In this document: one piece after another, positions 2,505-23,586 of the stretch
How the letters are laid out: each line of letters starts with the position of its first letter
Position numbering within the stretch: position 1 is the first letter of the stretch
The notes under the pieces: generated by a model
Database searches by the model: none
What the model saw: the letters and a program-made list of their open reading frames with translations, nothing else
Told to the model about the DNA's origin: nothing
DNA from: Candidatus Nanopusillus sp.
Lineage (GTDB): Archaea; Nanobdellota; Nanobdellia; Nanobdellales; Nanobdellaceae
NCBI GenBank assembly: GCA_028275775.1
Contig: JAPWTZ010000006.1
Location: 1-28,023, forward strand
Direction of reading: 5' to 3'
DNA: 28,023 nucleotides
Made by a program: the position numbers and the translations under genes

Positions 2505-2900
2505 ATGGATAAAAAAGAAACAATAATAGTAGGATTTATATTATTAATATTATTAGCAGTTGGGTTTATAGTTGCCCCTTTATTATATCCAATAAATAAT
2601 AACCAAAATTTAAATCAGAATGAATTATATCAAATATCTCAAATTGCCCAATATTGCCAAGCTCTATGTATATATGCAAAGTACAATTTATCTATAACTA
2701 ATTTAAGCAATACATGTTTAGTATCTAAAAATTCTATATTATATCAATCATGGATTTCTTATCCAAATGCATATAATTGGGGATGCGAAGTATCAAATAG
2801 CAATTTGAATTTATGCAACAATAGTAATTATATAGTATTAGATGAAAATTGTTCAATAATTAATATATATTACCAAAATAAGCAATTAAATATAGCATGA
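2505..2900 (+). CDS. Small N-terminally membrane-anchored, Cys/Asn-rich, probably extracellular protein
   Basis: One hydrophobic helix after MDKKE (TIIVGFILLILLAVGFIVAPLL), 6 Cys, and several N-x-S/T sequons (NLS, NLSNT, NNS, NCS). The track starts at TTG 2502; ATG 2505 is more likely. The stop overlaps the next gene (ATGA). Confidence 0.55.
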   Translation: MDKKETIIVGFILLILLAVGFIVAPLLYPINNNQNLNQNELYQISQIAQYCQALCIYAKYNLSITNLSNTCLVSKNSILYQSWISYPNAYNWGCEVSNSNLNLCNNSNYIVLDENCSIINIYYQNKQLNIA

Positions 2901-3622
2901 AATATATAGATTCTCATTGCCATCTATATAAATTCAATGAAATAGAAATTAAAAGAATAATAAGAAATAAAGATATAATAATATTGTCTGTTTCTGAGGA
3001 TTTAGAATCATCATTAAAAAATTTAATTTTATCTCAATTAAATGAAAATGTAATACCAGCTATAGGAATTCATCCATGGAATATAGAAAAAGTAAATGAA
3101 AATGCATTTAAAATAATAGAAGATATAATAAAAGATAATAAAATAAAAATACTTGGAGAAATTGGATTAGATAAAAAATTTAAACCAGAAACATTTGAAA
3201 AACAGAAGGAAATTTTTGAGAAATTCTTAAATTTGGCAAAAGAATACGACTTAAACCTAAATCTTCACACTCCAAATGCTTCAAATGAAGTATTTGATCT
3301 TTTAATAAAGTATGATATTAAAAAGGCATATTTTCATTGGTATAGTGGAGATGAAAAATTACTAGAAGAGATAATTAATAAAGGATATTTCATAGGAATA
3401 AATGTTGCAACAATAATAAATGAAAAATATAAAAAATATATAGAAATTGCAAATATAAAAAATATAATAACTGAGTCTGACGGACCATATAATTATAAAG
3501 GTATTATACTTCATCCAGACATGCTAAAAGATCTTTATAAACTAATTTCAGATATAAGAAAAATAAATCTAGAAGAACTATCAAATATTATACAAAACAA
3601 TTTTGCCAGGTTTATATATTAA
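2897..3622 (+). CDS. TatD-family metal-dependent hydrolase/DNase
   Basis: TatD motifs appear in order: IDSHCHL, GEIGLD, NLHTP, HWYSG, ESDGPY. Confidence 0.85.
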   Translation: MKYIDSHCHLYKFNEIEIKRIIRNKDIIILSVSEDLESSLKNLILSQLNENVIPAIGIHPWNIEKVNENAFKIIEDIIKDNKIKILGEIGLDKKFKPETFEKQKEIFEKFLNLAKEYDLNLNLHTPNASNEVFDLLIKYDIKKAYFHWYSGDEKLLEEIINKGYFIGINVATIINEKYKKYIEIANIKNIITESDGPYNYKGIILHPDMLKDLYKLISDIRKINLEELSNIIQNNFARFIY

Positions 3623-3734: not shown

Positions 3735-4274
3735 ATGTCAAAAAACTTTATAGGTATTATGAGCTACTTGCTAAACGAAAACTATTTAAAAATATTAGAA
3801 TATATAGCAGATAAAAAAGAATTTACAGAAAGAGAAATAAAAAGACAATTAAAGATAAAAGAAGAAGAAATTAGGAAACTATTATATATATTAGAAGAAA
3901 ATAACATAGTATACCCAATAAGCATAATAAATAATAATGGAAAATTTGATTTCAGATGGGGGAATAAAATACCAGATAGAGAAAAATTATTTAGCTTATT
4001 GATTAATAAAGAAATTGATAGAATTAATGAAGAAATTAAAAATACTCCAAAGACATTGTACTATTGTAATGAATGTGGAAGTGCATATACCTTTGATGAG
4101 GCATATGAAAATGATTTTATATGCAAAGAATGTGGATCATTATTAACAGAAAAGGAAAATTTCAGGATAATTGAATTAGAAAATATTGTACATAACTTAC
4201 AAATGTTATTAGATAAATATACTTCAAAAGTTACAAAGAAAGAAAAGGCATCAAAAGCAAGAGGTAAAAAATAA
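3735..4274 (+). CDS. tfe: Transcription factor E alpha subunit (TFE/TFIIE-alpha homolog)
   Basis: N-terminal winged-helix-like region (LKILEYIADKKEFTEREIKRQLKIKEEEIRKLLYILEENNIV) followed by a 4-Cys zinc ribbon (CNECGS...x17...CKECGS). Size is typical for archaeal TFE. Confidence 0.7.
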   Translation: MSKNFIGIMSYLLNENYLKILEYIADKKEFTEREIKRQLKIKEEEIRKLLYILEENNIVYPISIINNNGKFDFRWGNKIPDREKLFSLLINKEIDRINEEIKNTPKTLYYCNECGSAYTFDEAYENDFICKECGSLLTEKENFRIIELENIVHNLQMLLDKYTSKVTKKEKASKARGKK

Positions 4275-4304
4275 TTTTTTATTCTTTATTTAAATCTATA
4301 TTTA

Positions 4305-5456
4305 ATGATATTTAAAGTTAAAATATATGATTTAACTGATATATTTAAAGAAACAAAATCAAAGTTGGTTAAATCAAATATAGAAAATGGAGCTAGAGTA
4401 TATGGAATAAAACTTGATAAAATGAAAGGAATGATTGGATTTGAAATACTACCAAATAGAAGAATAGGAACTGAATTTGCTGATATTGCAAAAAAATTTG
4501 GATTAAAGGGAATATTACATTCAGATGAATTACCAAACTATGGGATATCTGAAGAAGAAGTAAATAATGTTAAAAAAATGTTAAATTGTTCAGATGAAGA
4601 TGCATTTATATTATTAATATCAAAAGATTATGAAGTAGCTAAGAAAGTTTTTAACTTAATAATAAATAGAATAAATGAATCAATTAAAAAAATACCAAAA
4701 GATACTAGACAAGCAAATGATGATGGAACTACATCTTTTTTAAGACCACAACCTGGTTCTGAAAGAATGTATCCAGAAACTGATCATCCTTATATATATA
4801 TTAATAAAGATATTATTGAAAATAATGAATACAATATAATAAGGTATAATATAAGTTATGGGGATATTAAAGAGACATTTGATATATATTATTTAAAGAA
4901 ATTTGATAAAAATCTATATATTAAATTGTTAAATGAAGGTAAAACAATATTAAATTCTATTGATCCAGAATTTGTTAAACAAATATTAAAATCTTTTGGA
5001 TATAATGATAAACAAATTGAAAATATAATATGGAGTGAATATATAAATGATATAATAAAAATATCATTTGATATAGATCCAAATACTGTATATTATTTAT
5101 TCTTTCAAATGATTGGAGATACTGAAAATTTATTTAAAGAAAAAATAGAAAAATTTGATTTAGATTTTATATATAAAATAAAAGATTACTTAAAAGATAA
5201 GAAGATTGTAAAAAATGCAATTCCAATAATATATTATCATTATATTAAATATAATAAAAATATTGAAGATATAATAAAAGAGAATAATTTATATAAAAGG
5301 AATAAGGAGGAATTAAAGAAAGAAATTGAAGAATATATAAAATCTTTAAATACTAATGATAAAAAAGTTATCTTTTCAAATGTATTTAGTAAGTTTAAAT
5401 ATGTAGCAGATAGTGAGGACATAAAAAAAGTATTGGAAGAAATATTAAATATATAA
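4305..5456 (+). CDS. gatE: Glu-tRNA(Gln) amidotransferase subunit E (GatE), C-terminal ~60% only; the N-terminal cradle part is missing
   Basis: Residues 70-90 carry the GatE-specific insertion-domain block (GILHSDELPNYGISEEEV). Residues 146-162 carry the GatB/E signature (LRPQPGSERMYPETDHP). The ORF is 383 aa, against roughly 600-630 aa for characterised GatE. Only 10 sense codons separate its ATG from the in-frame tfe stop. Confidence 0.7.
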   Translation: MIFKVKIYDLTDIFKETKSKLVKSNIENGARVYGIKLDKMKGMIGFEILPNRRIGTEFADIAKKFGLKGILHSDELPNYGISEEEVNNVKKMLNCSDEDAFILLISKDYEVAKKVFNLIINRINESIKKIPKDTRQANDDGTTSFLRPQPGSERMYPETDHPYIYINKDIIENNEYNIIRYNISYGDIKETFDIYYLKKFDKNLYIKLLNEGKTILNSIDPEFVKQILKSFGYNDKQIENIIWSEYINDIIKISFDIDPNTVYYLFFQMIGDTENLFKEKIEKFDLDFIYKIKDYLKDKKIVKNAIPIIYYHYIKYNKNIEDIIKENNLYKRNKEELKKEIEEYIKSLNTNDKKVIFSNVFSKFKYVADSEDIKKVLEEILNI

Positions 5457-8993: not shown

Positions 8994-9686
8994 TTAAATA
9001 CCAATGTACTCTCTTATATATTTTATATCATAATTTAAATTCAATTTTTTAGATATATTTAATATATTATTTAAATCTCTATTAAGAAATTCTTCAGAAT
9101 ATGGAGAATCAATTGGTATTGATTGAGATACATCTATTATATATGGAACATTATTAAATATAATTATATTATATTCTGAAAAATCTCCATGAATTAATTT
9201 AGCCTTATTATATATTTTTTTATATTGATCTAATATATCAAAAAATAATTCTTCCTTATTTTCAATTGAATCATAACAATCATGTAATAATAATGGACCT
9301 TTTTCATAACCTATATATTCCATTACCAATATATTTCCTTTATATAAATATGGAATTGGAACTCTTACTAAATTTTTATACATTTTTCTTAAGTTCATAT
9401 ATTCTTTCTTTACCCATGTATATATTATCCCAATCTTTGTTCTTGGAAATTTATATATTCTAGGATCAGCTTTTAAATAATTTACCTGTTCTTTATAACT
9501 TATTGACATTATTTTATATATTTTTATTGCAAATTTCCCAGATCTTACAACAATTGCTTCCTTTCCTTCAGATATTAATGTTAAATCATCTTCTATATAA
9601 TGATCTTTATACAATTTATCTAAATAGTATAATGTATTTTTATCAAATACTTTTCCATATACTTTCCATATTTCTCTATATTTCAT
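8994..9686 (-). CDS. rio1: RIO-type serine kinase (Rio1-like; no N-terminal wHTH)
   Basis: Contains EGKEAIVV, FAIKIYK, LVMEYIG, the catalytic LIHGDFSEYNIII, and IIDVSQS. Confidence 0.8.
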   Translation of the reverse strand: MKYREIWKVYGKVFDKNTLYYLDKLYKDHYIEDDLTLISEGKEAIVVRSGKFAIKIYKIMSISYKEQVNYLKADPRIYKFPRTKIGIIYTWVKKEYMNLRKMYKNLVRVPIPYLYKGNILVMEYIGYEKGPLLLHDCYDSIENKEELFFDILDQYKKIYNKAKLIHGDFSEYNIIIFNNVPYIIDVSQSIPIDSPYSEEFLNRDLNNILNISKKLNLNYDIKYIREYIGI

Positions 9687-13378: not shown

Positions 13379-15028
13379 ATGTATGAATTTATTAGTGATA
13401 TTATAAAAAAAAGCCTTAGAAAGATTACTATAATATTTAGCACAATAATTTTATTAATAATTATAATAGGAAAATATTTACCAGTATTAAAAATATATTA
13501 TCCTGTTTTATATTTATCTGCTGTTGTTTTTTCATTAGAAGTTATATTTCTAGAATATTATAAAACAAAAAAATCATTAGATAAATCTTTATTATATTAT
13601 ATAGCATATTTATATTCTCTTTCATTTTCTACAAGTAATATTAAAAGATTATTAGAAATTGCAATTGAAGAAAAAGCAGAATTTAAGGATATAAATTATT
13701 ATATGTCAAAGATTCTTTTTTTAACAAATAAATATAATTATACAATCCCAGAGGCTATAAGATATGTTTTACCATATATTCCAAATAGTAATTTTAAAAG
13801 TTTTCTAGAAAGATTTGCAACATCAATTGATATTGGAGAAGAAGTTCCAGAATTTTTATATAAGGAATATGAAACACAATTGGCAATATATGAAGCAAAT
13901 TATGAAAAGGGTTTAGAAAATATAAGATTATTGGATGAATTTGTAATATCATTATTATCTTCTTTAGGATTTGCATTTTCTTTAATATTATTTATACCTT
14001 TCTTAGTAAGTACAAATATTGTATTTTTGTTAGCAGATTTCTTTATAATATTTATTGTAGTTAATTTACTTATATATTATGTATCAAAATATTACATTCC
14101 AGATGATGGATTATGGTCAAATTCAAAAGAAAAGCCAAAAGAATATGTAACAATAAGATATTTATTTTATCTTTTATCATTTTTATCTTATATATTATTT
14201 TTAGCACTATTTTTAGTATTAAAGTTACAATTATTGGAAGCATTTGCAATAGCAGCAACACCTTTGGCATATGTAAGTTATAGGATGATATTATTAGAAA
14301 GAGCATTAAAAATAAAAGAAAATCATTTTCCAGCATTTTTTAGTAGTATAATAGAATATTCAGAAATATTTGGAAGTAATCAAACAAAAATATTGGATAA
14401 TGTTGTTATACATGATTTTGGTTTATTAAATGAAGATATTAATAGATTGAGAAAAAGAGCAAATATAACAAAAAATTATTCAGAATCTTGGAGATATTTT
14501 ATAGTTGAACTAGGTAGTTCAATTGCAGAAAAAATAATAAAAGTATTTGAAAAAGTTTTATCATATAATGGAGATACAAAGAAAGCAGGAGATATGTTAT
14601 ATAATATATTAATAAAGATAATTGAACTTAGATCTAGGAAATCTCAATTTATATCTAATTTAAGAGGTATTATATATGGAACATATATAGCATTTATAGC
14701 AATTTTATTTATAGTTGCTCAAATATTATATTTGTTAAATCAAATGTTTCAAGGTGTATCTACAGCACTTGGTACTGCAGTAGCTCAAGTAGGTATAAAT
14801 ATATATACACTTTCAATTCCTCTATATATATTGCAAGATTATATATTTGTAATATCTATTATTGAAGCTTTTATATTAGCTGGAGCATTAAAAAATATAG
14901 ATGGAGGATCTAAACTTGGAATGTTTTTAGATGCAACAGTTATGATATGGTTAAGTGCATTATTAAATATTGGAGTATATTATTTATTTACTCATGTATT
15001 TTCTGGTCTATCTTTAGTAAAAATATAA
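13379..15028 (+). CDS. FlaJ/ArlJ/TadC-like polytopic platform protein of a type IV pilus/archaellum assembly system
   Basis: 549 aa. Two soluble T2SS-F-like modules, each followed by TM helices. Module 1 is ~65-185, with IPEAIRYVLPYIPNSNFKSFLERFATSIDIGEEVPEFL. Module 2 is ~300-440, with FPAFFSSIIEYSEIFGSNQTKIL...SESWRYFIVELGSSIAEKIIKVFEKVLSYNGDTKKAGDML. Confidence 0.6.
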   Translation: MYEFISDIIKKSLRKITIIFSTIILLIIIIGKYLPVLKIYYPVLYLSAVVFSLEVIFLEYYKTKKSLDKSLLYYIAYLYSLSFSTSNIKRLLEIAIEEKAEFKDINYYMSKILFLTNKYNYTIPEAIRYVLPYIPNSNFKSFLERFATSIDIGEEVPEFLYKEYETQLAIYEANYEKGLENIRLLDEFVISLLSSLGFAFSLILFIPFLVSTNIVFLLADFFIIFIVVNLLIYYVSKYYIPDDGLWSNSKEKPKEYVTIRYLFYLLSFLSYILFLALFLVLKLQLLEAFAIAATPLAYVSYRMILLERALKIKENHFPAFFSSIIEYSEIFGSNQTKILDNVVIHDFGLLNEDINRLRKRANITKNYSESWRYFIVELGSSIAEKIIKVFEKVLSYNGDTKKAGDMLYNILIKIIELRSRKSQFISNLRGIIYGTYIAFIAILFIVAQILYLLNQMFQGVSTALGTAVAQVGINIYTLSIPLYILQDYIFVISIIEAFILAGALKNIDGGSKLGMFLDATVMIWLSALLNIGVYYLFTHVFSGLSLVKI

Positions 15029-15468
15029 CTTATTTTTCTTTCTTTTGGTATAAAATCTTTTAATATATTATTTTTAATATAAACACTACATAAAATATCA
15101 TTATTATCTTTTGCGATATAAAAACCATTTTCATAATTTTTATCTAACTTTATATTTTCATTATATTTATAAAAAAGACTTTCCTTTTTTATTTCAATAA
15201 TTTTATTAGAATTTATCCCAAAGATCTGCGCACCTTCTATACTAAATCTATATCTATTATTTTTTTCTATTTTAATTACATATAGACCATATTTCTTTAT
15301 ATATTTTTCATCTAAAAAATCTGGAAAATTTTTATTAAACATATATATTTTATCTTTATTAATGAAAAATCTGTATTTTTTTATTATTGACCTATCTATA
15401 TTTATATTATAGTATTCTTCTATTTTCTTAAATATTTCTTCTATATTCTTTTTATTTAATTCTTTCAT
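14992..15468 (-). CDS. Hypothetical protein, possibly a PUA/Nip7-like RNA-binding protein
   Basis: 158-aa ATG ORF whose start overlaps the rfcL stop by 4 nt. The tail ...ILCSVYIKNNILKDFIPKERK resembles the C-terminal ends of PUA/Nip7-type domains. The functional call is weak. Confidence 0.45.
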   Translation of the reverse strand: MKELNKKNIEEIFKKIEEYYNINIDRSIIKKYRFFINKDKIYMFNKNFPDFLDEKYIKKYGLYVIKIEKNNRYRFSIEGAQIFGINSNKIIEIKKESLFYKYNENIKLDKNYENGFYIAKDNNDILCSVYIKNNILKDFIPKERKISYIFTKDRPENT

Positions 15469-16691
15469 AATTTTTCTACAGCCTCTTTTATATATGATAT
15501 TTCATTTTCATCAAATCCCAATATTTTTGCATATTCTTTTCCTATTTTTTCATTTTCTTTCATTAAAACAATCAATGTATTTATATATACTTCCCTAACT
15601 CTATGTTTTGATGTATGAACCTTCTTTTGTAAATTTTTTGATAATTCTTCAATTTTTTCTCTTATCTCTTTATTTTGCGATAATCTTCTTACATATTGTG
15701 GCATCCTATATTTTGTAAATTTATTATATCTTTTTTCTTTTGCTAATGCAACACCAGCATACATTAATGTTGTAAAATATTTTAATAGATCCCAATATTG
15801 TCTTCTATAAATTCTTCCATAAAATACAATTGCCAATGATAACCAATTATAAGCTTCATATATTTCTTTTATATCTTCATATTCATTTGATATATTTTCT
15901 TCAACCCATGCTTTAATTTCCTCAGGATCCATATCTACATCTGCAAAAGGTAATGTAGCACCAGCTATTGTATTTGCTTTAAACATTTGACCTAGTGCTT
16001 TAAATATTGTAATTTCTCTTTCTCTATAACCTAAGACTTCCAAATCTTTTAATGTAATATGATTACTCATCATTGCTAATGCTTGTAAATCATTTATTGC
16101 ACTTCTTAAATCACCAGAAGATCTTTCTGCAAGTGCAGATAATGCATTTTCATCAATTGTTATTTTTTCATTTGTACAAATTCTCTTTAATTGTCTTATT
16201 ATATCATAATTTGATAATTTTTTGAATTCAACCATATCACATAAATCTCTTAATTTCTTAAATTTTGGATCCCATGGATCATTTGCAGTTAATATTATTG
16301 GCCACTTCGATTCTTCTATTATTTTTGCTAATGCTCCAACTCCACCTCTATCTTGAAATCCAGCTAATCCATCGACTTCATCAACTAAAATTATCCTTCC
16401 TTTTTTAAAAAATGGTTTTCCCTTTATTGCTTCTCCCAATTTTTCATGTATAACTCTTGCATTTCTATTATCTGAAGCATTTAATTCTACAACTTCATAA
16501 TTTAAATCATTTGCAATTGCATATATTGATGACGTTTTTCCAACACCTGGAGGACCATATATTAATAATGCTTTTTTATCTACATTTGGATATTTTTCAA
16601 TAAAGGATTTTATTTTCCCAATAGCTTCTGACTGATTAATTATTTCATTAATATGTTTAGGTGCATATTTTTTTATCCATGGCTCAACCAT
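15465..16691 (-). CDS. rfcL: Replication factor C large subunit
   Basis: Contains WIKKYAPKHINEI, Walker A GPPGVGKTS, LNASDNR, DEVDG, and the SGDLRSAINDLQ sensor region. Confidence 0.85.
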   Translation of the reverse strand: MVEPWIKKYAPKHINEIINQSEAIGKIKSFIEKYPNVDKKALLIYGPPGVGKTSSIYAIANDLNYEVVELNASDNRNARVIHEKLGEAIKGKPFFKKGRIILVDEVDGLAGFQDRGGVGALAKIIEESKWPIILTANDPWDPKFKKLRDLCDMVEFKKLSNYDIIRQLKRICTNEKITIDENALSALAERSSGDLRSAINDLQALAMMSNHITLKDLEVLGYREREITIFKALGQMFKANTIAGATLPFADVDMDPEEIKAWVEENISNEYEDIKEIYEAYNWLSLAIVFYGRIYRRQYWDLLKYFTTLMYAGVALAKEKRYNKFTKYRMPQYVRRLSQNKEIREKIEELSKNLQKKVHTSKHRVREVYINTLIVLMKENEKIGKEYAKILGFDENEISYIKEAVEKL

Positions 16692-16740: not shown

Positions 16741-16810
16741 TATAGTTACTATTTGATTATAGATAACAACGATAGATTTAAAAACTTTTTTATTAGTAAT
16801 TTTAGTTATG
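16741..16810 (+). promoter_or_regulatory. Conserved promoter-to-ATG element, copy A, with the TATA-like tttaaaaa at 16777-16784
   Basis: 54/70 ungapped identity with 17642-17711, with the ATG in register. The TATA centre lies ~27 nt upstream of ATG 16808, which implies a leaderless mRNA. Confidence 0.55.
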
Positions 16811-17562
16811 GAAGAGCCTATGTCTGATGATTTAAAGACAGAATTTTTTTCTTGATATTAAAATTAGGGAATGCATTGAGGAATAAGGCATATGAAGAAG
16901 AGTTAGGAAGAGAGTTTGTAAAAGAATTTGGAGAAAAATTAGTAGAATATGGAAAAAAATCATATAAAGATTATCAAAAAGAATTACAAAAGATACACAA
17001 AAAACTGCCCAAAGCACATAGAGTGGCACTAGATGTATTACTAGAAAAGATAGATATTTATAATCCATGTAAAAGAGAACCAACATGTTTAGATCCATAT
17101 GAATGGCTACTTATTTCTCACTATATATCTATAAATAACTTAAAAACCACTATAATAAGAAGTATTAACAAGCATCTTGAAAGATTAGATCCTACACAAC
17201 CAAATTATGATAAAGAAATTAAAAATATACGAGATGTTTTAATATATCTATCAGGGGTATATAAAACATTATTATTAGCTTATACGTTAGTGGTAGACAA
17301 CGCATTAAGCACCCATAAAAACCCATTGCATGATAAAATGGTTGAGCAGATAGAACGTTTAAAAGCATCTGATGACATTCAGAATTATATTCATGCAATT
17401 CAGGACTATATTCAGAAAGAGATGGAAAGGATCGACTTAGCATATCAAACGGCATCTAGCTATATTGAAGATACTATAGAAGAACTTTTCTATAAGAATG
17501 AAGAGGGATTTATTGAAAAGCTAACAAATGCATTACTTAAATATAGTAGGAATAGTTCATAA
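16808..17562 (+). CDS. Orphan alpha-helical protein, cassette A, interrupted by a frameshift at a T7 run
   Basis: ATG 16808 sits in the conserved promoter register and opens a 15-codon frame that stops at 16853-16855. The long ORF (track 16852..17562, TTG start) is in the -1 frame and has no in-frame ATG for ~160 codons. The two frames overlap only across 16831-16852, which contains the T7 run at 16844-16850. Confidence 0.55.
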
Positions 17563-17579
17563 GATAAATTAATATAATT

Positions 17580-17610
17580 CTTTTTTATTTATTTTTTATT
17601 TAATAACTAA
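17580..17610 (+). terminator. Conserved oligo-T 3' flank of cassette A (cttttttatttattttttatttaataactaa)
   Basis: T6 and T6 runs typical of archaeal termination. 29/31 identical to 18986-19016. Confidence 0.4.
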
Positions 17611-17641
17611 TTTACAACTATATTTTTATATAAGATATTGA

Positions 17642-17711
17642 TATAACTACTATCTGATCATAGATAGTAACAATAGATTTAAAAATCTTTTCAATAATAT
17701 ACTTACTTATG
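17642..17711 (+). promoter_or_regulatory. Conserved promoter-to-ATG element, copy B, with TATA-like tttaaaaa at 17678-17685 and an 8-6-8 inverted repeat at 17648-17669
   Basis: See copy A. The repeat tactatct-gatcat-agatagta has perfect 8-bp arms immediately upstream of the TATA box. Confidence 0.55.
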
Positions 17712-18905
17712 AAAAAGATATATCCATCTCCAAATCAAAACCAATCTAAAACATTAGATGAATTAGTAGGAAGAAAAGAATTAGAGGAAGCCATAGCAGC
17801 ATATACATATTATCTATCTACAAAGGGTCATGTGCTCAAAGCAGTATCAGAAGATATACCACAAGCGTTACCACCATTAAAAGAAATAATAAAAAACCTG
17901 GATGAATTTGGCGAATGTAAAAGTTTTTTAACTAATGATCAAGAAGCTCTCCAAAAGTGTACAGATGAATATAACTTTAAGGATGGCTTACTTGGAGGTA
18001 TTTGGGAATATACTATATGGAAGCATACACCAGAACAAATTAAAGAATTTACAAAAGGTTTAGAAACTCTAGCAAAAGGAGGCAAACAAGTAATAAAGGA
18101 TTTATATAAGCGATACCAGCAATATAAAACTACTCCAATACCTGAAGAAGATATAGATCCTAGGGTACTTGAAATAATACCTGAGGTTAGGGCTATTGAA
18201 TCTCTTGTACTTCGATATTTAGAGAATCCCGAAGATTATAAAAAACGAGTTAGTAAATATTTGGGAAAAAGACAATATCTATCTATAATAAAACAAGCAT
18301 TCTCAACGTTACCAAAATTTATCAAATATTTAGGAAAAAAATCGGAAGTGGAGGCAAAAGAAGAAGTAAAAGCATATGAAGAATTAAAAGAAGCAGCAGA
18401 AAACTATACTCTTTACGCAGATTATATGAGAGATGCACTCGATATAGTATCAGAACATATACCAAAAGCTTTACCATCATTAGTAACATTAATAGAAAAC
18501 TTAAGAGAATGGGACAAAAGTAATCTTTTAACTAATGATCAAGAAGCTCTCAAAGAATATGCAGATAAATATTACTTTATGGCTTACTTCATGGGAAGTA
18601 TTCTAGAATGGTGGGTATCAAAATGGAATATTCCACCAGAAGAAATTGAGGGATTCACAAAAGGTTTAGAAACTCTAGCAAAAGGAGGCAAAGAAATAAT
18701 AGATGACCTATATAGACATTATAAAGAAGTAAATAAATTGGCATTAGAAGAGATATCAAAAATTTATCAAACTATAAATATATATAGACTAAGAGAAGCA
18801 CGTGCAAGTGCGGCTGGAACTATTGAATATCTTCTAGTAAATTATTTTAGGAATCCTAAAGAGCATGAAGATCAACTTATGAAATACGCGGGAATGAAGC
18901 ATTAA
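17709..18905 (+). CDS. Orphan alpha-helical protein, cassette B, built from two tandem ~175-aa repeats
   Basis: 398-aa ATG ORF. Residues ~23-189 align with ~224-398. Shared blocks include IPQALPPL/IPKALPSL, LTNDQEAL in both, FTKGLETLAKGGK in both, and NPEDYKKRVSKYLGKR/NPKEHEDQLMKYAGMK. No family recognised. Confidence 0.75.
   Translation: MKKIYPSPNQNQSKTLDELVGRKELEEAIAAYTYYLSTKGHVLKAVSEDIPQALPPLKEIIKNLDEFGECKSFLTNDQEALQKCTDEYNFKDGLLGGIWEYTIWKHTPEQIKEFTKGLETLAKGGKQVIKDLYKRYQQYKTTPIPEEDIDPRVLEIIPEVRAIESLVLRYLENPEDYKKRVSKYLGKRQYLSIIKQAFSTLPKFIKYLGKKSEVEAKEEVKAYEELKEAAENYTLYADYMRDALDIVSEHIPKALPSLVTLIENLREWDKSNLLTNDQEALKEYADKYYFMAYFMGSILEWWVSKWNIPPEEIEGFTKGLETLAKGGKEIIDDLYRHYKEVNKLALEEISKIYQTINIYRLREARASAAGTIEYLLVNYFRNPKEHEDQLMKYAGMKH
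17775..18902 (+). repeat. Intragenic tandem duplication, with units at ~17775-18275 and ~18378-18902 and a period of 600-606 nt
   Basis: The units are generally diverged at the DNA level. Two patches are perfectly identical: 17926-17951 = 18526-18551 (26 nt) and 18051-18086 = 18657-18692 (36 nt). Confidence 0.85.
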
Positions 18906-18985
18906 GATAGACTGACATAGCAGCATGTAGATTATATTGTGACTGTAAAACAGAAAAGCAAAGTACATAAGACTTCTTGTAAAAT

Positions 18986-19016
18986 CTTTTTTATTTAATT
19001 TTTATTTAATGACTAA
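18986..19016 (+). terminator. Conserved oligo-T 3' flank of cassette B (cttttttatttaatttttatttaatgactaa)
   Basis: 29/31 identical to 17580-17610. It overlaps the 3' end of the convergent gene 19006..19422. Confidence 0.4.
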
Positions 19017-19422
19017 ATAAAGAGAAAAGTCCACTTAATATACCACCACTTTCAACTATTTTGCATGGTAAAACTGCTTCATATTGATTACCATTTACAA
19101 TATAATATACCCTTACATATGCATTTCCTATAATAATATTGTTATTTATATTACATGCATTCATAGATCCATAATTTATATTTCCTAAATTACATGATGA
19201 ATTTTCATAGAAATTATATACCGTTACATTTTCCAGATTTTGTTTTGCAGTAATTATAATAAGAGATGTTCCATTTGCATATTGACAACTATATGTAAAA
19301 TATTCTAAATATGGAGGTAAATATGATGTTACATAATATGTATATATTGCATATAGTACAACCAATATAAAAGCTGCGATACCAACCCAGATTACAAATT
19401 TTGGTATCTTTGATATATCCAT
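19006..19422 (-). CDS. Small N-terminally membrane-anchored, Cys/Asn-rich, probably extracellular protein
   Basis: MDISKIPKF followed by one TM helix (VIWVGIAAFILVVLYAIYTYYV), 4 Cys, and sequons NGT, NVT and NSS. No family recognised. Confidence 0.6.
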   Translation of the reverse strand: MDISKIPKFVIWVGIAAFILVVLYAIYTYYVTSYLPPYLEYFTYSCQYANGTSLIIITAKQNLENVTVYNFYENSSCNLGNINYGSMNACNINNNIIIGNAYVRVYYIVNGNQYEAVLPCKIVESGGILSGLFSLFSH

Positions 19423-19432
19423 AAAATTATTT

Positions 19433-19684
19433 TTAATCTACATATATATAAACATAGATATATTTATTCCCTCTATCCTCAATCTTCATATTTTTTATAA
19501 TCTCTTCATATTTTTTATCATCTACATCAAATAGATCTGGATATTTATTCAATATATAATCCAACAATAATCTTTTTATCATAATATCACCATTCTTATT
19601 CAAATTTTCAGAATTATATTCATCTAAAATACCTTCTATTATATATTTTGGAATCTTAAATTCATACTCAATATTATATGGCAT
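19433..19684 (-). CDS. Hypothetical small protein (83 aa from the ATG)
   Basis: The track ORF runs to 19741 but begins at TTG. The first ATG is at 19684 (MPYNIEYEF...). No family recognised. Confidence 0.5.
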   Translation of the reverse strand: MPYNIEYEFKIPKYIIEGILDEYNSENLNKNGDIMIKRLLLDYILNKYPDLFDVDDKKYEEIIKNMKIEDRGNKYIYVYIYVD

Positions 19685-19757
19685 GTAAAATCTTACTATT
19701 TTCCAAAATATAAATGATTGCTTTATATTTTTGAATTTCAAAAATGATTATCGAAAA

Positions 19758-20726
19758 TTATTTTCTATTTTGTAAACCTCTAAGCCCTATATATGCAAGC
19801 AAAGCACCTAATTGTATTATTGGATCTGAACCTTCTAATAATCTATATTCTATTTCTCCAGCATAATATATTATATCTAATTTTTCTTTTTCAGGTATAC
19901 TCATTGAATAAACTTCCTTCGATAGATATTTAATTATATCTTCTCCTGCAAGACCATATTTTAACATTAAATCAATTAATTTTTCCCTAGCTTCAGCAAA
20001 TTTTCCTTCATATGCTAATTTTAGTACTTCCTGCAATTCTTGTGGTTTTGCTACAGAAGCAACTTCATATATTAATTCTGGAGTTATATCTTTAGAATAT
20101 AAAGCTGCAGCCTGTAATATATTTATTGATTTTCTCATATCTCCTTCTGAAATATAATATATTGCTTCTAATGCATCATCAGTTATATTTAAACTTTCTT
20201 TTTCAGCTATTGATCTTAATAAATCAAATACATCTTTTTTATCTAATTGTTTAAATCTAAATACAACAGTCCTAGATTGAATTGGTTCTATAATCTTTGA
20301 TGAATAATTACATGCTAATATGAATCTCGTTACTGAAGAATATTCTTCCATTATTCTTCTTAAAGCTTGTTGTGCATCTCTTGTCATTGCATCTGCTTCA
20401 TCCAAAAATACAATTTTAAATGGAACATTTCCAATTGGTTTTGTTCTAGCAAATTCTTTTACCTTTTCCCTTATTACATCAATTCCCCTATCATCTGAAG
20501 CATTTAATTGTAATACATTTTGTTCCCATTTATCACCATATAATTCTCTAGCGAGTGCCAACGCAGCAGTTGTTTTTCCAACACCAGCAGGTCCTGCAAA
20601 TAATAAATGAGGCATATTTTTATTTTCTACAAATGCCTTTAATCTTTTTACTATCTCATCCTGTCCTTTTATATCATCTAATCTTTTTGGTCTATATTTT
20701 TCAGTCCATATTTCATTATCTGACAT
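19758..20726 (-). CDS. rfcS: Replication factor C small subunit
   Basis: Contains [13 protein letters not shown], Walker [35 protein letters not shown], and [11 protein letters not shown]. Confidence 0.95.
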
Positions 20727-21427: not shown

Positions 21428-22189
21428 ATGATAGTTGATGATCATGCCCATTTATTTTTATATAATAATGCAGATGAAAAAATAAAGGAAAATATTGAAA
21501 GAAATGTAAAATATATAATTGAAAATTCTATAGATGTTGAAAGTATAAATAAAGTAATTGAAGAATCAAAAAAATATGATATAATATATTATGCTTTAGG
21601 ACTATATCCTGAAGAAATTGAAAAAATGAATGATAATGATATAGAAAAAATATTTGAATTTATTGAAGAAAATAAAGATAAAAAATTTTTAGCAATTGGA
21701 GAAGTTGGATTGGATTTTTCTAATGTAGATGAAGATAAAATTAGAAAACAAAAAATATATTTTGAAAAATTTTTGGAATTGGCTGATAGATTAAAGAAAC
21801 CTGTAATAATTCATAGTAGAAAAGCTGAAAAAGAAGTATTAGATATATTAACAAGTTATAATAATAAAAAAGTATTGCATACATTTTGGAAACCTTCTTT
21901 AGTAGATAAAGCAATTGAAATAAATTGTTATTTATCAATACCAGCAATTGTTTATAGAGATCCTGGATTTCAAAAAATTGTAAAAGATATACCATTAGAA
22001 TTTATTTTAACTGAAACAGATTCTCCATATTTAGATCCAATAGAAAAAGGTAAAGCAGTAAATAATTCATGGAAGATAATATATTCTTTGGAAAAGATAT
22101 CCGAAATAAAAGATATAGATATGGAAGAATTGGAAGAAATAATATTTAATAACTTTGTTAAGGTATATAATATAAATAATGATGAATAA
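21428..22189 (+). CDS. TatD-family metal-dependent hydrolase/DNase (second paralog)
   Basis: Contains VDDHAHL, GEVGLD, IIHSRKA, LHTF, and TETDSPY. Confidence 0.85.
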   Translation: MIVDDHAHLFLYNNADEKIKENIERNVKYIIENSIDVESINKVIEESKKYDIIYYALGLYPEEIEKMNDNDIEKIFEFIEENKDKKFLAIGEVGLDFSNVDEDKIRKQKIYFEKFLELADRLKKPVIIHSRKAEKEVLDILTSYNNKKVLHTFWKPSLVDKAIEINCYLSIPAIVYRDPGFQKIVKDIPLEFILTETDSPYLDPIEKGKAVNNSWKIIYSLEKISEIKDIDMEELEEIIFNNFVKVYNINNDE

Positions 22190-22230: not shown

Positions 22231-22980
22231 ATGAAAATAATATCATGGAATGTTAATGGATTAAAATCTATAATTCAAAAAGGTTTGATTGATTTTATTA
22301 AAAAATATAATGCAGATTTTTATCTATTTCAAGAAATAAAAACAAAAGAAATACCATTAACTTTCCAATTTCTTGGATATAATGTATATTCATTCCCTGC
22401 AGAGAGAAAAGGATATAGTGGAGTACTAACATTAGCAAAAATAAAACCAAATAATGCAAAATATGGAATTGGAATTGAGAAATTTGATATTGAAGGAAGG
22501 GTTATAACAATGGAATATGATAAATTTTATTTGATAAATGTATATTTTCCAAATGCTGGAGTTGGAACATTAAAAAGATTGGATTTTAAATTAGAATTTG
22601 ATAAAGAATTTGAAAAATATGTACTTTCTTTAAATAAACCATGTATAATTTGTGGAGATTTTAATGTAGCACATAAAGATATTGATATATATGATCCAAT
22701 AAATTTGAGAGGCTATGCAGGATTTACGGATGAGGAAAGACAATGGTTTGATCATTTTTTATCTTTAGGATTTATTGATACATTTAGATATATAAAAGGA
22801 AATATAAGAAAATATAGCTGGTTTTCATATTCAATTATTGCAAGAAAGAAAAATGAAGGATGGAGACTTGACTATTGTGTAGTAAGTAAAGAATTAAAAG
22901 ATAAAATAGTTAATGCAGATATATTAGATAATATATATGGATCTGATCATGTTCCAATATTATTAGAAATAAATATATAA
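22231..22980 (+). CDS. xth: Exodeoxyribonuclease III / AP endonuclease
   Basis: Contains ISWNVNGL, LFQEIK, the GYSGV block, CGDFNVAH, WRLDY, and GSDHVP. Confidence 0.9.
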   Translation: MKIISWNVNGLKSIIQKGLIDFIKKYNADFYLFQEIKTKEIPLTFQFLGYNVYSFPAERKGYSGVLTLAKIKPNNAKYGIGIEKFDIEGRVITMEYDKFYLINVYFPNAGVGTLKRLDFKLEFDKEFEKYVLSLNKPCIICGDFNVAHKDIDIYDPINLRGYAGFTDEERQWFDHFLSLGFIDTFRYIKGNIRKYSWFSYSIIARKKNEGWRLDYCVVSKELKDKIVNADILDNIYGSDHVPILLEINI

Positions 22981-22985
22981 AAAAT

Positions 22986-23000
22986 CATTTAATGAATTTA
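22986..23000 (+). repeat. Left copy of the direct repeat catttaatgaattta flanking the methyltransferase gene
   Basis: 14/15 identical to 23606-23620. Confidence 0.35.
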
Positions 23001-23052
23001 GACAATTTGTATATTTTAAAAGATTTATACATATTATTAATAACACCTTATA

Positions 23053-23586
23053 ATGCCAGGTTTTCGTCACCATCGCTTTGGTCCAAGCTACGTACGTAGT
23101 GATATAGACGAACTAATATTAAGTTACCTACCACAAGGTGGAGTAGCTGCTGATCTTGGATGTGGATCAGGTAGGTTTTGCCAGGTGCTATTAAATAAAG
23201 CTAGCAAGGTTTACTGCGTAGATATAGACGAATATGCCATCAATATGGCAAAAGAAAATACTAAGGATAATAGAGCAGTATTTCTCAATGAAGATGCGTC
23301 ATCAACATCAATACCTGCTAGCTCTGTAGATTTAGTAATAATGGTTAACGCATTCCATGATATGGAAAATAAGGATAAAGTAGTTCTAGAGGTGGGTAGG
23401 ATCCTTAAGCAAGGTGGTCTGGCTTTAATTATAGAGTCTAAACCGGGTTTAGCATCATATGGGCCACCACCATGGTTAAGAATGAGCCCCAATGATATAA
23501 TTAAGTACTTCAATAATCCTCAATTTAAAGTAGAAGGTATAAAGGATTTAGGAGATTTTAACGCTATAGTAATTAAAAAGCTTTGA
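23053..23586 (+). CDS. Class I SAM-dependent methyltransferase (Methyltransf_11/25-like), compositionally foreign
   Basis: Motif I is VAADLGCGSGRF, with an acidic residue at the end of beta-2 (VYCVDID) and a post-I/II pattern (DLVIMVNAFHDM, LKQGGLALI). Hand counts give ~38-45% GC, against ~20% in the flanking genes. It uses TAC, AAG and CGT/CGC codons that are rare elsewhere in the window. Confidence 0.8.
   Translation: MPGFRHHRFGPSYVRSDIDELILSYLPQGGVAADLGCGSGRFCQVLLNKASKVYCVDIDEYAINMAKENTKDNRAVFLNEDASSTSIPASSVDLVIMVNAFHDMENKDKVVLEVGRILKQGGLALIIESKPGLASYGPPPWLRMSPNDIIKYFNNPQFKVEGIKDLGDFNAIVIKKL

Follow-up and report, generated by a model that had tools for sequence, protein, structure and literature searches.

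A probable birth-and-death gene family with a shared promoter and terminator at a variable island of Nanopusillus-like nanoarchaea

How two adjacent genes can keep nearly the same non-coding flanks while their coding sequences have diverged almost beyond comparison is the question raised by a locus of Candidatus Nanopusillus sp. on contig JAPWTZ010000006.1 (assembly GCA_028275775.1). The whole stretch analysed, 28,023 nt and referred to here as the window, comes from the chromosome of a Nanopusillus-like nanoarchaeon (Nanoarchaeota) in a hot-spring metagenome, and 15 kb of it is covered, with two mismatches, by a second assembly (JGI 3300036346). The two genes, A (16808–17562) and B (17709–18905), lie in tandem on the plus strand between the replication factor C (RFC) large-subunit gene and orf138, a gene for a small membrane protein, and each forms with its flanks a unit that we call a cassette. 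An earlier note on this DNA had taken the pair for a cassette-type multigene family of no described kind, either co-regulated or recombining through its flanks, an interpretation that the results below support in part. We consider it probable that A and B belong to a tandem multigene family confined to one lineage, evolving by birth and death, with a promoter and a terminator common to its members. The family itself is new; the way it evolves is of a known kind, and it does not constitute a new type of system.

The likeness of the flanks is not due to chance. Upstream, 16741–16810 and 17642–17711 are identical without gaps at 54 of 70 positions, and downstream 17580–17610 and 18986–19016 at 29 of 31 (94 %), exactly as reported earlier, against maxima of 46/70 and 22/31 among about 200,000 random pairs of segments from the same 24 % GC sequence; a repeat search and pattern shuffles agree. 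The upstream similarity reaches weakly to about 16700, and the downstream similarity extends back into the last codons and the stop. The TATA box TTTAAAAA occupies positions −31 to −24 from the A of both start codons (centre −27.5), which is the common register of about 27 nt described before. Cassette A carries this box at 16777–16784, directly behind a BRE-like (transcription factor B recognition element) sequence, AACGATAGA, at 16768–16776, both recognized from the profile and the TATA–ATG distance; upstream of them, at 16749–16766 (profile positions 19–36), stands an operator-like imperfect palindrome of CTATTT, the 6-nt spacer GATTAT and AGATAA. In cassette B the corresponding palindrome is perfect (CTATCT, spacer GATCAT, AGATAG; 17650–17667), and sequence and profile place the BRE-like AACAATAGA and the TATA box TTTAAAAA (17678–17685) within 17669–17685. 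All four features are on the plus strand. The consensus of 145 aligned unique upstream copies, GATATATTTATATAATTACTATCTGATAATAGATAGTAACGATAAATTTAAAAATTTTTCTAATAATAATTTTATTATG, comprises an imperfect palindrome CTATCT-N6-AGATAG, a purine-rich BRE-like AACGATARA, the near-invariant TTTAAAAA, a spacer of about 23 nt and the ATG. In these copies C19, G32 and the flanking A/T positions of the palindrome are conserved in 79–99 %, and positions 38–54, the BRE and TATA box, are near-invariant.

Both window cassettes and the 145 unique copies thus have the geometry of archaeal leaderless genes, with a TATA box some 26–27 nt before the start and a purine-rich BRE. RNA-seq of Nanoarchaeum equitans has placed its box A, TTTAAA, 26–27 nt before the transcription start and has shown terminators to be T-stretches (PMC3491384), features that the cassettes appear to share. 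Applied here, that geometry would have the cassettes transcribed from the ATG itself or from a point no more than about 4 nt away, and the mRNAs may well be leaderless, as proposed earlier. Elsewhere in the window, genes that open a transcription unit show the same TATA-to-ATG distance, and leaderless starts are therefore likely to be the norm in this genome and not a special feature of the cassettes. For the palindrome beside the BRE and TATA box, co-regulation, one of the two possibilities raised earlier, is the best reading. A scan for bacterial promoters and terminators gave nothing useful, its model being unsuited to an archaeon.

The 3′ elements tell something of the origin of the array. 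That of cassette B, TCTTTTTTATTTAATTTTTATTTAATGACTAA (18985–19016, plus strand; sequence and profile), overlaps the stop codon of the convergent orf138, and TTAATGACTAA, at 19006–19016, is the stop and last codons of that gene. That of cassette A, TCTTTTTTATTTATTTTTTATTTAATAACTAA (17579–17610, plus strand; sequence comparison and profile), combines a predicted oligo-T terminator with a vestige of the orf138 end, since its last 11 nt, TTAATAACTAA, correspond to TTAATGACTAA. The element thus ends in the orf138 stop and final codons at the true edge of the island and survives as a vestige at the A/B junction.

The earlier note had proposed a search for further copies of both elements, and there are many in related genomes and metagenomes, as a multigene family requires. 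An nhmmer profile of an 80-nt 5′ element gave 22 matches at E≤4e-8 in about 100 kb of related DNA, none of them outside islands; after a metagenome scan with a 35-nt pattern had recovered 59 contigs, the profile found 177 matches in 1.26 Mb of fetched DNA, and 170 of these have ATG or GTG at precisely the base predicted for the start. A genome-contig scan with a 24-nt degenerate promoter pattern was dominated, among the matches listed, by chance matches in AT-rich bacteria; 116 such non-nanoarchaeal loci, in which the 24-nt core is present by chance, were reused as negative controls and gave no match to the 5′ profile. The 3′ profile gave 70 matches and none in the control loci, and the 3′ element lies 7–156 nt (mostly <45 nt) past the stop in 61 of 142 cassettes. 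In every related contig examined the site between the two anchor genes holds 1–5 or more cassettes, all on the same strand. A single cassette with the same promoter also stands at another conserved locus, flanked by a HEPN/nucleotidyltransferase pair and the triosephosphate isomerase gene, and encodes a G-type protein of 224–231 aa, a seventh subfamily (locus L064, 5780–6544; also L134, L144 and L155).

The homologues come from sources named Candidatus Nanopusillus or Nanobsidianus. An exhaustive hidden Markov model (HMM) search of 1.84 billion representative proteins returned 20 clusters, of which those traced (P0039, P0053, P0026, P0091 and P0100) are Nanopusillus-type, and two weak matches of 900–1,100 aa look unrelated; the family is restricted to the Nanopusillus/Nanobsidianus lineage. 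Searches of Pfam, NCBIfam, PADLOC, PHROGs and PDB sequences gave only sub-threshold chance matches, a viral-contig search (IMG/VR) gave no relatives, and no description of the locus was found in the literature, in agreement with the earlier remark that no described family with such a layout was known to its author.

The coding bodies were said to show faint similarity at most, and by direct comparison this is so: A and B cannot be aligned as DNA (62–66 % gapped identity against 59 % in a shuffled control), and BLASTP between the proteins is not significant (E 0.77). As a statement about kinds of gene it does not stand, because intermediates connect the two. The protein P0100, encoded by the cassette that stands first in the island of a related contig, aligns by hhalign with both family profiles (E 2.2e-16 for A, E 7.5e-14 for B); six subfamilies are linked by BLASTP among 23 island proteins, and at E≤1e-5 BLASTP unites all 132 unique open reading frames (ORFs) that follow the promoter element in a single network, divisible at E≤1e-40 into about 15 subfamilies that are common to different genomes. 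AlphaFold2 models of A-type and B-type proteins are confident (predicted local distance difference test, pLDDT, 89.5 and 86.3) and concordant despite shallow alignments; both are all-alpha, with matching helix order and the same Cys-bearing loop after helix 3, and motifs and Cys positions are conserved across subfamilies. A and B are diverged paralogues of one superfamily, not different kinds of gene. Fold searches of PDB and BFVD with the confident models gave no significant match.

Closer reading of the two genes shows features that the earlier note had overlooked. Gene A begins with the ATG at 16808, and its translation stops after 15 codons at an in-frame TGA (16853), just past a T7 run at 16844–16850, the long ORF continuing in the −1 frame at 16852–17562. 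Intact A orthologues are 251–255 aa and start MEEP… or MDEP…, so that the earlier figure of about 251 codons holds only once a base has been put back into the T7 run. Where relatives have TTTCTTTTC the window has TTTTTTTC (16844–16855), a 1-nt deletion; set against GAATTTCTTTTCTTG of close relatives, the window's GAATTTTTTTCTTG has lost a C, and this loss created the T7 run. Relatives carry either an in-frame T7 or TTTCTTTTC at the site. The frameshift looks like a single deletion, and the second assembly has the identical sequence; gene A has therefore probably become a pseudogene only recently, unless its reading frame is recovered by slippage on the T7 run. Programmed −1 frameshifting or transcriptional slippage was rejected as the default explanation, the T7 run having arisen from a 1-nt deletion and other cassettes carrying unrelated truncations. 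An A-type copy in L155 is likewise frameshifted near its 5′ end.

Gene B does have the 398 codons attributed to it, and these are not a single body but an in-frame fusion of two B-subfamily domains (about 17709–18350 and 18351–18905), recognizable from internal DNA repeats (17830–18108 and 18433–18714) and from BLASTP of the halves, which are in tandem, about 200 aa each and 40 % identical (E 5e-38). In L004 each of the two domain types has a gene to itself, the two genes lying side by side and encoding 245 and 221 aa, and orthologues of about 400 aa form 34 clusters. Just past the stop, at 18899–18970 on the plus strand, translation reveals what is left, decayed and out of frame, of the Cys-containing C-terminal tail of the family (…TDIAACRLYCDCKTEKQST*, compared with intact tails …ADIAACRLYGGCKTEKQNT of single-domain members); many relatives retain this tail, and gene B has lost it.

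The array as a whole is unstable, and its borders are not. On the left stands the RFC large-subunit gene (15465–16691, minus strand; Pfam AAA, RFC lid and RFC1 C-terminal domains), whose protein is 90–96 % identical across related contigs, and on the right orf138 (19006–19422, minus strand), which is kept at the island edge in all complete islands and whose translation has an N-terminal transmembrane helix and a Cys/Asn-rich domain. Twenty-seven complete islands have 1–5 cassettes, nearly all with a different composition or order, and 20 of 162 cassettes are truncated. Thirteen internal matches of 21–36 nt to the RFC large-subunit 5′ end occur without an intact gene, 12 of them being 21–24-nt copies of its first codons inside arrays, and internal junctions also show an excess of orf138 3′ ends. 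Because the junctions carry scraps of both anchor genes, the unit of duplication is likely to have been the whole island with the edges of both. The A/B junction in the window is of a short type, with the orf138 vestige only. The first cassette of L007 is chimeric, with the first-position flank and B-type MVD codons on a C-type body, and its orthologue in L003 sits behind an internal-type flank, which points to a crossover at the flank or 5′ end. These observations support, and do not prove, unequal recombination through the flanks. Variable copy number and content between close genomes, pseudogenes (gene A, a split gene in L129, the frameshifted A-type copy in L155 and the truncated cassettes) and paralogues that are not homogenized are what a birth-and-death family is expected to show.

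Some individual loci illustrate this turnover. At 9250–10400 of L155 another gene, an ORF of 323 aa, lies upstream of the array, with a scrap of the RFC large-subunit 5′ end retained. An E-type cassette that is intact in L128 (266 aa; 3829–4629) is split into ORFs of 105 and 166 aa in L129 (2768–3566), a near-identical contig from another sample. The metagenome-assembled genome GCA_046533775.1 breaks inside the array: its contig 6 (L002) ends just past a B-type gene and its contig 12 (L003) starts within the tail of a gene of that type. The repeated flank elements are the probable cause, and the make-up of the island would explain why assemblies tend to break there.

What has kept the flanks alike while the bodies diverged can be judged from substitution rates, for which the window was compared with four related genomes and with eight neighbouring genes (for protein identity also orf85). 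Between genomes A and B have ratios of non-synonymous to synonymous substitution rates (dN/dS) of 0.38–1.05, dS of 0.10–0.52 and protein identities of 59–90 %, and the neighbours dN/dS of 0.06–0.18, dS of 0.10–0.35 and identities of 86–98 %. With dS similar to that of the neighbours, the divergence of the bodies reflects a raised non-synonymous rate and not greater age. Such values, together with the truncated cassettes (gene A included) and the want of a match to any known family or fold, would suit a locus whose ORFs are non-functional remnants drifting neutrally, where only intergenic signals, or nothing, matter. We think this quite unlikely. Some 9 % of random codons are stops in DNA of 24 % GC, as computed from composition, and frames of 200–400 codons, which chance would not keep open, have by this argument been maintained; motifs and Cys positions persist across subfamilies, the predicted folds are confident and concordant, and the promoter is kept before every copy. 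For the flanks, 5′ identities were taken from profile alignments, ungapped comparison being misled by 1-nt indels in the spacer. They are 0.74 across families on different contigs, 0.77 within a subfamily and 0.72 for different-family pairs on the same contig, and the 76–77 % between A and B in the window lies on this family-wide plateau. Concerted evolution, in which gene conversion or unequal crossing-over continually homogenizes the flanks while the bodies escape, would draw on the variable order and copy number of the arrays, on the chimeric cassette and on the homology that conserved flanks would offer to recombination. It is unlikely nonetheless: sharing a contig does not make flanks more alike, so there is no homogenization within genomes; flank identity is nearly independent of the relatedness of the bodies; and flank subtypes, the D-type variant among them, are passed on together with their bodies, being conserved between orthologous cassettes of different genomes. 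The pattern fits long-term purifying selection on a shared cis-module. Of the earlier suggestion of recombination through the flanks, the shuffled order, one chimeric cassette and the fused gene give indirect support, and flank conservation itself does not speak for ongoing gene conversion.

Two further explanations deal with the cassettes as units. A simple recent local duplication, with flanks too young to have diverged, would account for adjacent tandem units and a 3′ flank that is 94 % identical, and the earlier note had named it among the outcomes that would refute its reading; in N. equitans, two CRISPR leaders with identical promoters at duplicated loci have been read in this way (PMC3491384). 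For A and B it is scarcely credible. Their bodies are saturated (BLASTP E 0.77; DNA at the level of shuffled sequence), their flank identity is that of the family at large, and both subfamilies with the same flanks are present as orthologues in many genomes, which refutes it. Unlike the N. equitans case, the promoter here is common to more than 100 diverged protein genes and has an additional upstream palindrome. That palindrome, with inverted arms of 6–7 nt and a 6-nt spacer at every cassette boundary, might instead be the core site of a recombinase acting on integron- or shufflon-like cassettes, and the variable cassette order and the cassette at a second locus would be in keeping with such a site-specific system. 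No mobility gene or recombinase was found in the window or adjoining any island examined, all cassettes have the same orientation and a TATA promoter of their own, the anchor-gene fragments at junctions are expected from segmental duplication instead, and the palindrome lies directly beside the BRE, the expected binding place of an archaeal regulator; we regard a site-specific system as very improbable. Nor does the array look like a viral or mobile element, since it keeps a fixed place in the chromosome amid conserved synteny. Like integrons, the array has modular units, a conserved boundary element with an imperfect palindrome and a variable order; unlike them, it has no integrase, its cassettes have their own promoters and its boundaries hold scraps of flanking genes.

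Our working hypothesis is accordingly one of birth and death. The tandem array that occupies the fixed site between RFC large-subunit gene and orf138 encodes an all-alpha superfamily of proteins of about 200–250 aa, and each cassette would form its own transcription unit of operator-like palindrome, BRE, TATA box, leaderless start, gene and oligo-T terminator. The array would have grown through successive tandem duplications of everything between the two anchors; the bodies diverge fast, some having fused (gene B) and some undergone frameshift (gene A), and copies are lost and reordered, probably through unequal recombination between the conserved flanks. The need of every copy for a common promoter and terminator, most likely with a single regulator for all, would keep the flanks alike. 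Several points weigh against this scheme. The direct comparison of A and B profiles proposed in the earlier note is borderline (probability 50 %, E 1.7e-4), and their homology rests on the intermediates, through the bridging P0100. Leaderless starts, independent transcription and expression itself are predictions from sequence, the palindrome is a putative operator and the common regulator is postulated from it; flank recombination is deduced from the diversity of the arrays and from one chimera. A gene-wide dN/dS near 1 is equally expected of decaying genes, and 12 % of the cassettes are truncated. Lastly, at least one locus outside the RFC island is present among the matches listed in the genome-contig scan.

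Birth-and-death tandem multigene families are a concept of Nei and colleagues, and the Nanopusillus array resembles them in tandem duplication, rapid divergence, pseudogenes, differences in copy number and order and the absence of concerted evolution. It differs from typical examples in belonging to an archaeal symbiont of the 0.6-Mb class, in its near-fixed leaderless promoter and terminator and in its confinement to one site bounded by housekeeping genes. The vlp/vsp-type loci of Mycoplasma, an example of variable gene families in host-dependent bacteria of reduced genome, encode surface lipoproteins switched by homopolymer tracts or inversions; they too have clustered paralogues, a conserved promoter and 5′ region before divergent bodies and a strain-variable repertoire, whereas the Nanopusillus family is without a signal peptide, transmembrane segment, inversion or demonstrated repeat-length switch. 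The ‘polyimmunity’ arrays of polymorphic toxins consist of small, diverse, strain-variable paralogues without enzymatic motifs. The likeness of our array to these is an analogy only, as no toxin gene adjoins it and no defence or immunity model matches it.

What the proteins do may be approached from these properties. With no evident signal peptide or transmembrane segment in the A/B family sequences, we infer that they are intracellular, under diversifying or strongly relaxed selection, and concerned with strain-specific relations to the host or to viruses. It is possible, although we consider it doubtful, that the island is a dedicated diversity locus of an obligate archaeal ectosymbiont: a co-regulated, fast-diversifying repertoire of intracellular or delivered effector-like proteins, reassorted as the conserved promoter and terminator modules recombine, switched on jointly by one regulator binding CTATCT-N6-AGATAG, and determining strain-specific host compatibility or virus resistance.

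The island stands in a neighbourhood of core genes, which include those for ribosomal proteins, eRF1, a RIO kinase, the CCA-adding enzyme, a RadA-like protein, an ArlJ/FlaJ homologue, TatD and methyltransferases; Rfam and tRNA scans of the region gave no matches. Its right-hand block consists of orf138, orf85 and the RFC small-subunit gene (19006–20726, minus strand), so that orf138 and orf85 (19006–19741), neither assignable to a known family, stand between two RFC subunit genes. The Cys- and Asn-rich region of orf138 carries N-glycosylation-type sequons, which with its N-terminal transmembrane helix make it a likely surface protein. The GC content of the island, 0.28–0.31 at 17001–19000, is above the window mean of 0.24, and the island also exceeds the locus mean in six of seven related loci (marginally in L003). 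A 516-aa aldehyde dehydrogenase gene lies between the Exo_endo_phos and methyltransferase genes in L004, L005, L007 and L008 and is absent at 22980–23053 of the window and from L128, a presence/absence polymorphism. Two TatD-family paralogues are encoded at 2897–3622 and 21428–22189. The ArlJ/FlaJ homologue at 13379–15028 has an ordinary dN/dS (0.07–0.12 in pairwise comparisons); a single-cell study has described a FlaJ/TadC homologue with a high density of non-synonymous single-nucleotide polymorphisms (PMC6142677).

Nanoarchaeota have tiny genomes, and the basis of their host specificity is a question on which this island may bear. It is the fastest-evolving and most strain-variable segment of a neighbourhood otherwise conserved at 90–98 %, with a strictly conserved promoter module, and as such offers a candidate set of genes for strain-specific interactions. 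Its palindromic cis-element gives a defined target in the search for a regulator, and with the island as marker locus Nanopusillus strains can be followed through hot-spring metagenomes. Were it indeed a dedicated diversity locus, no multigene system of the contingency type would have been described in DPANN archaea before it.

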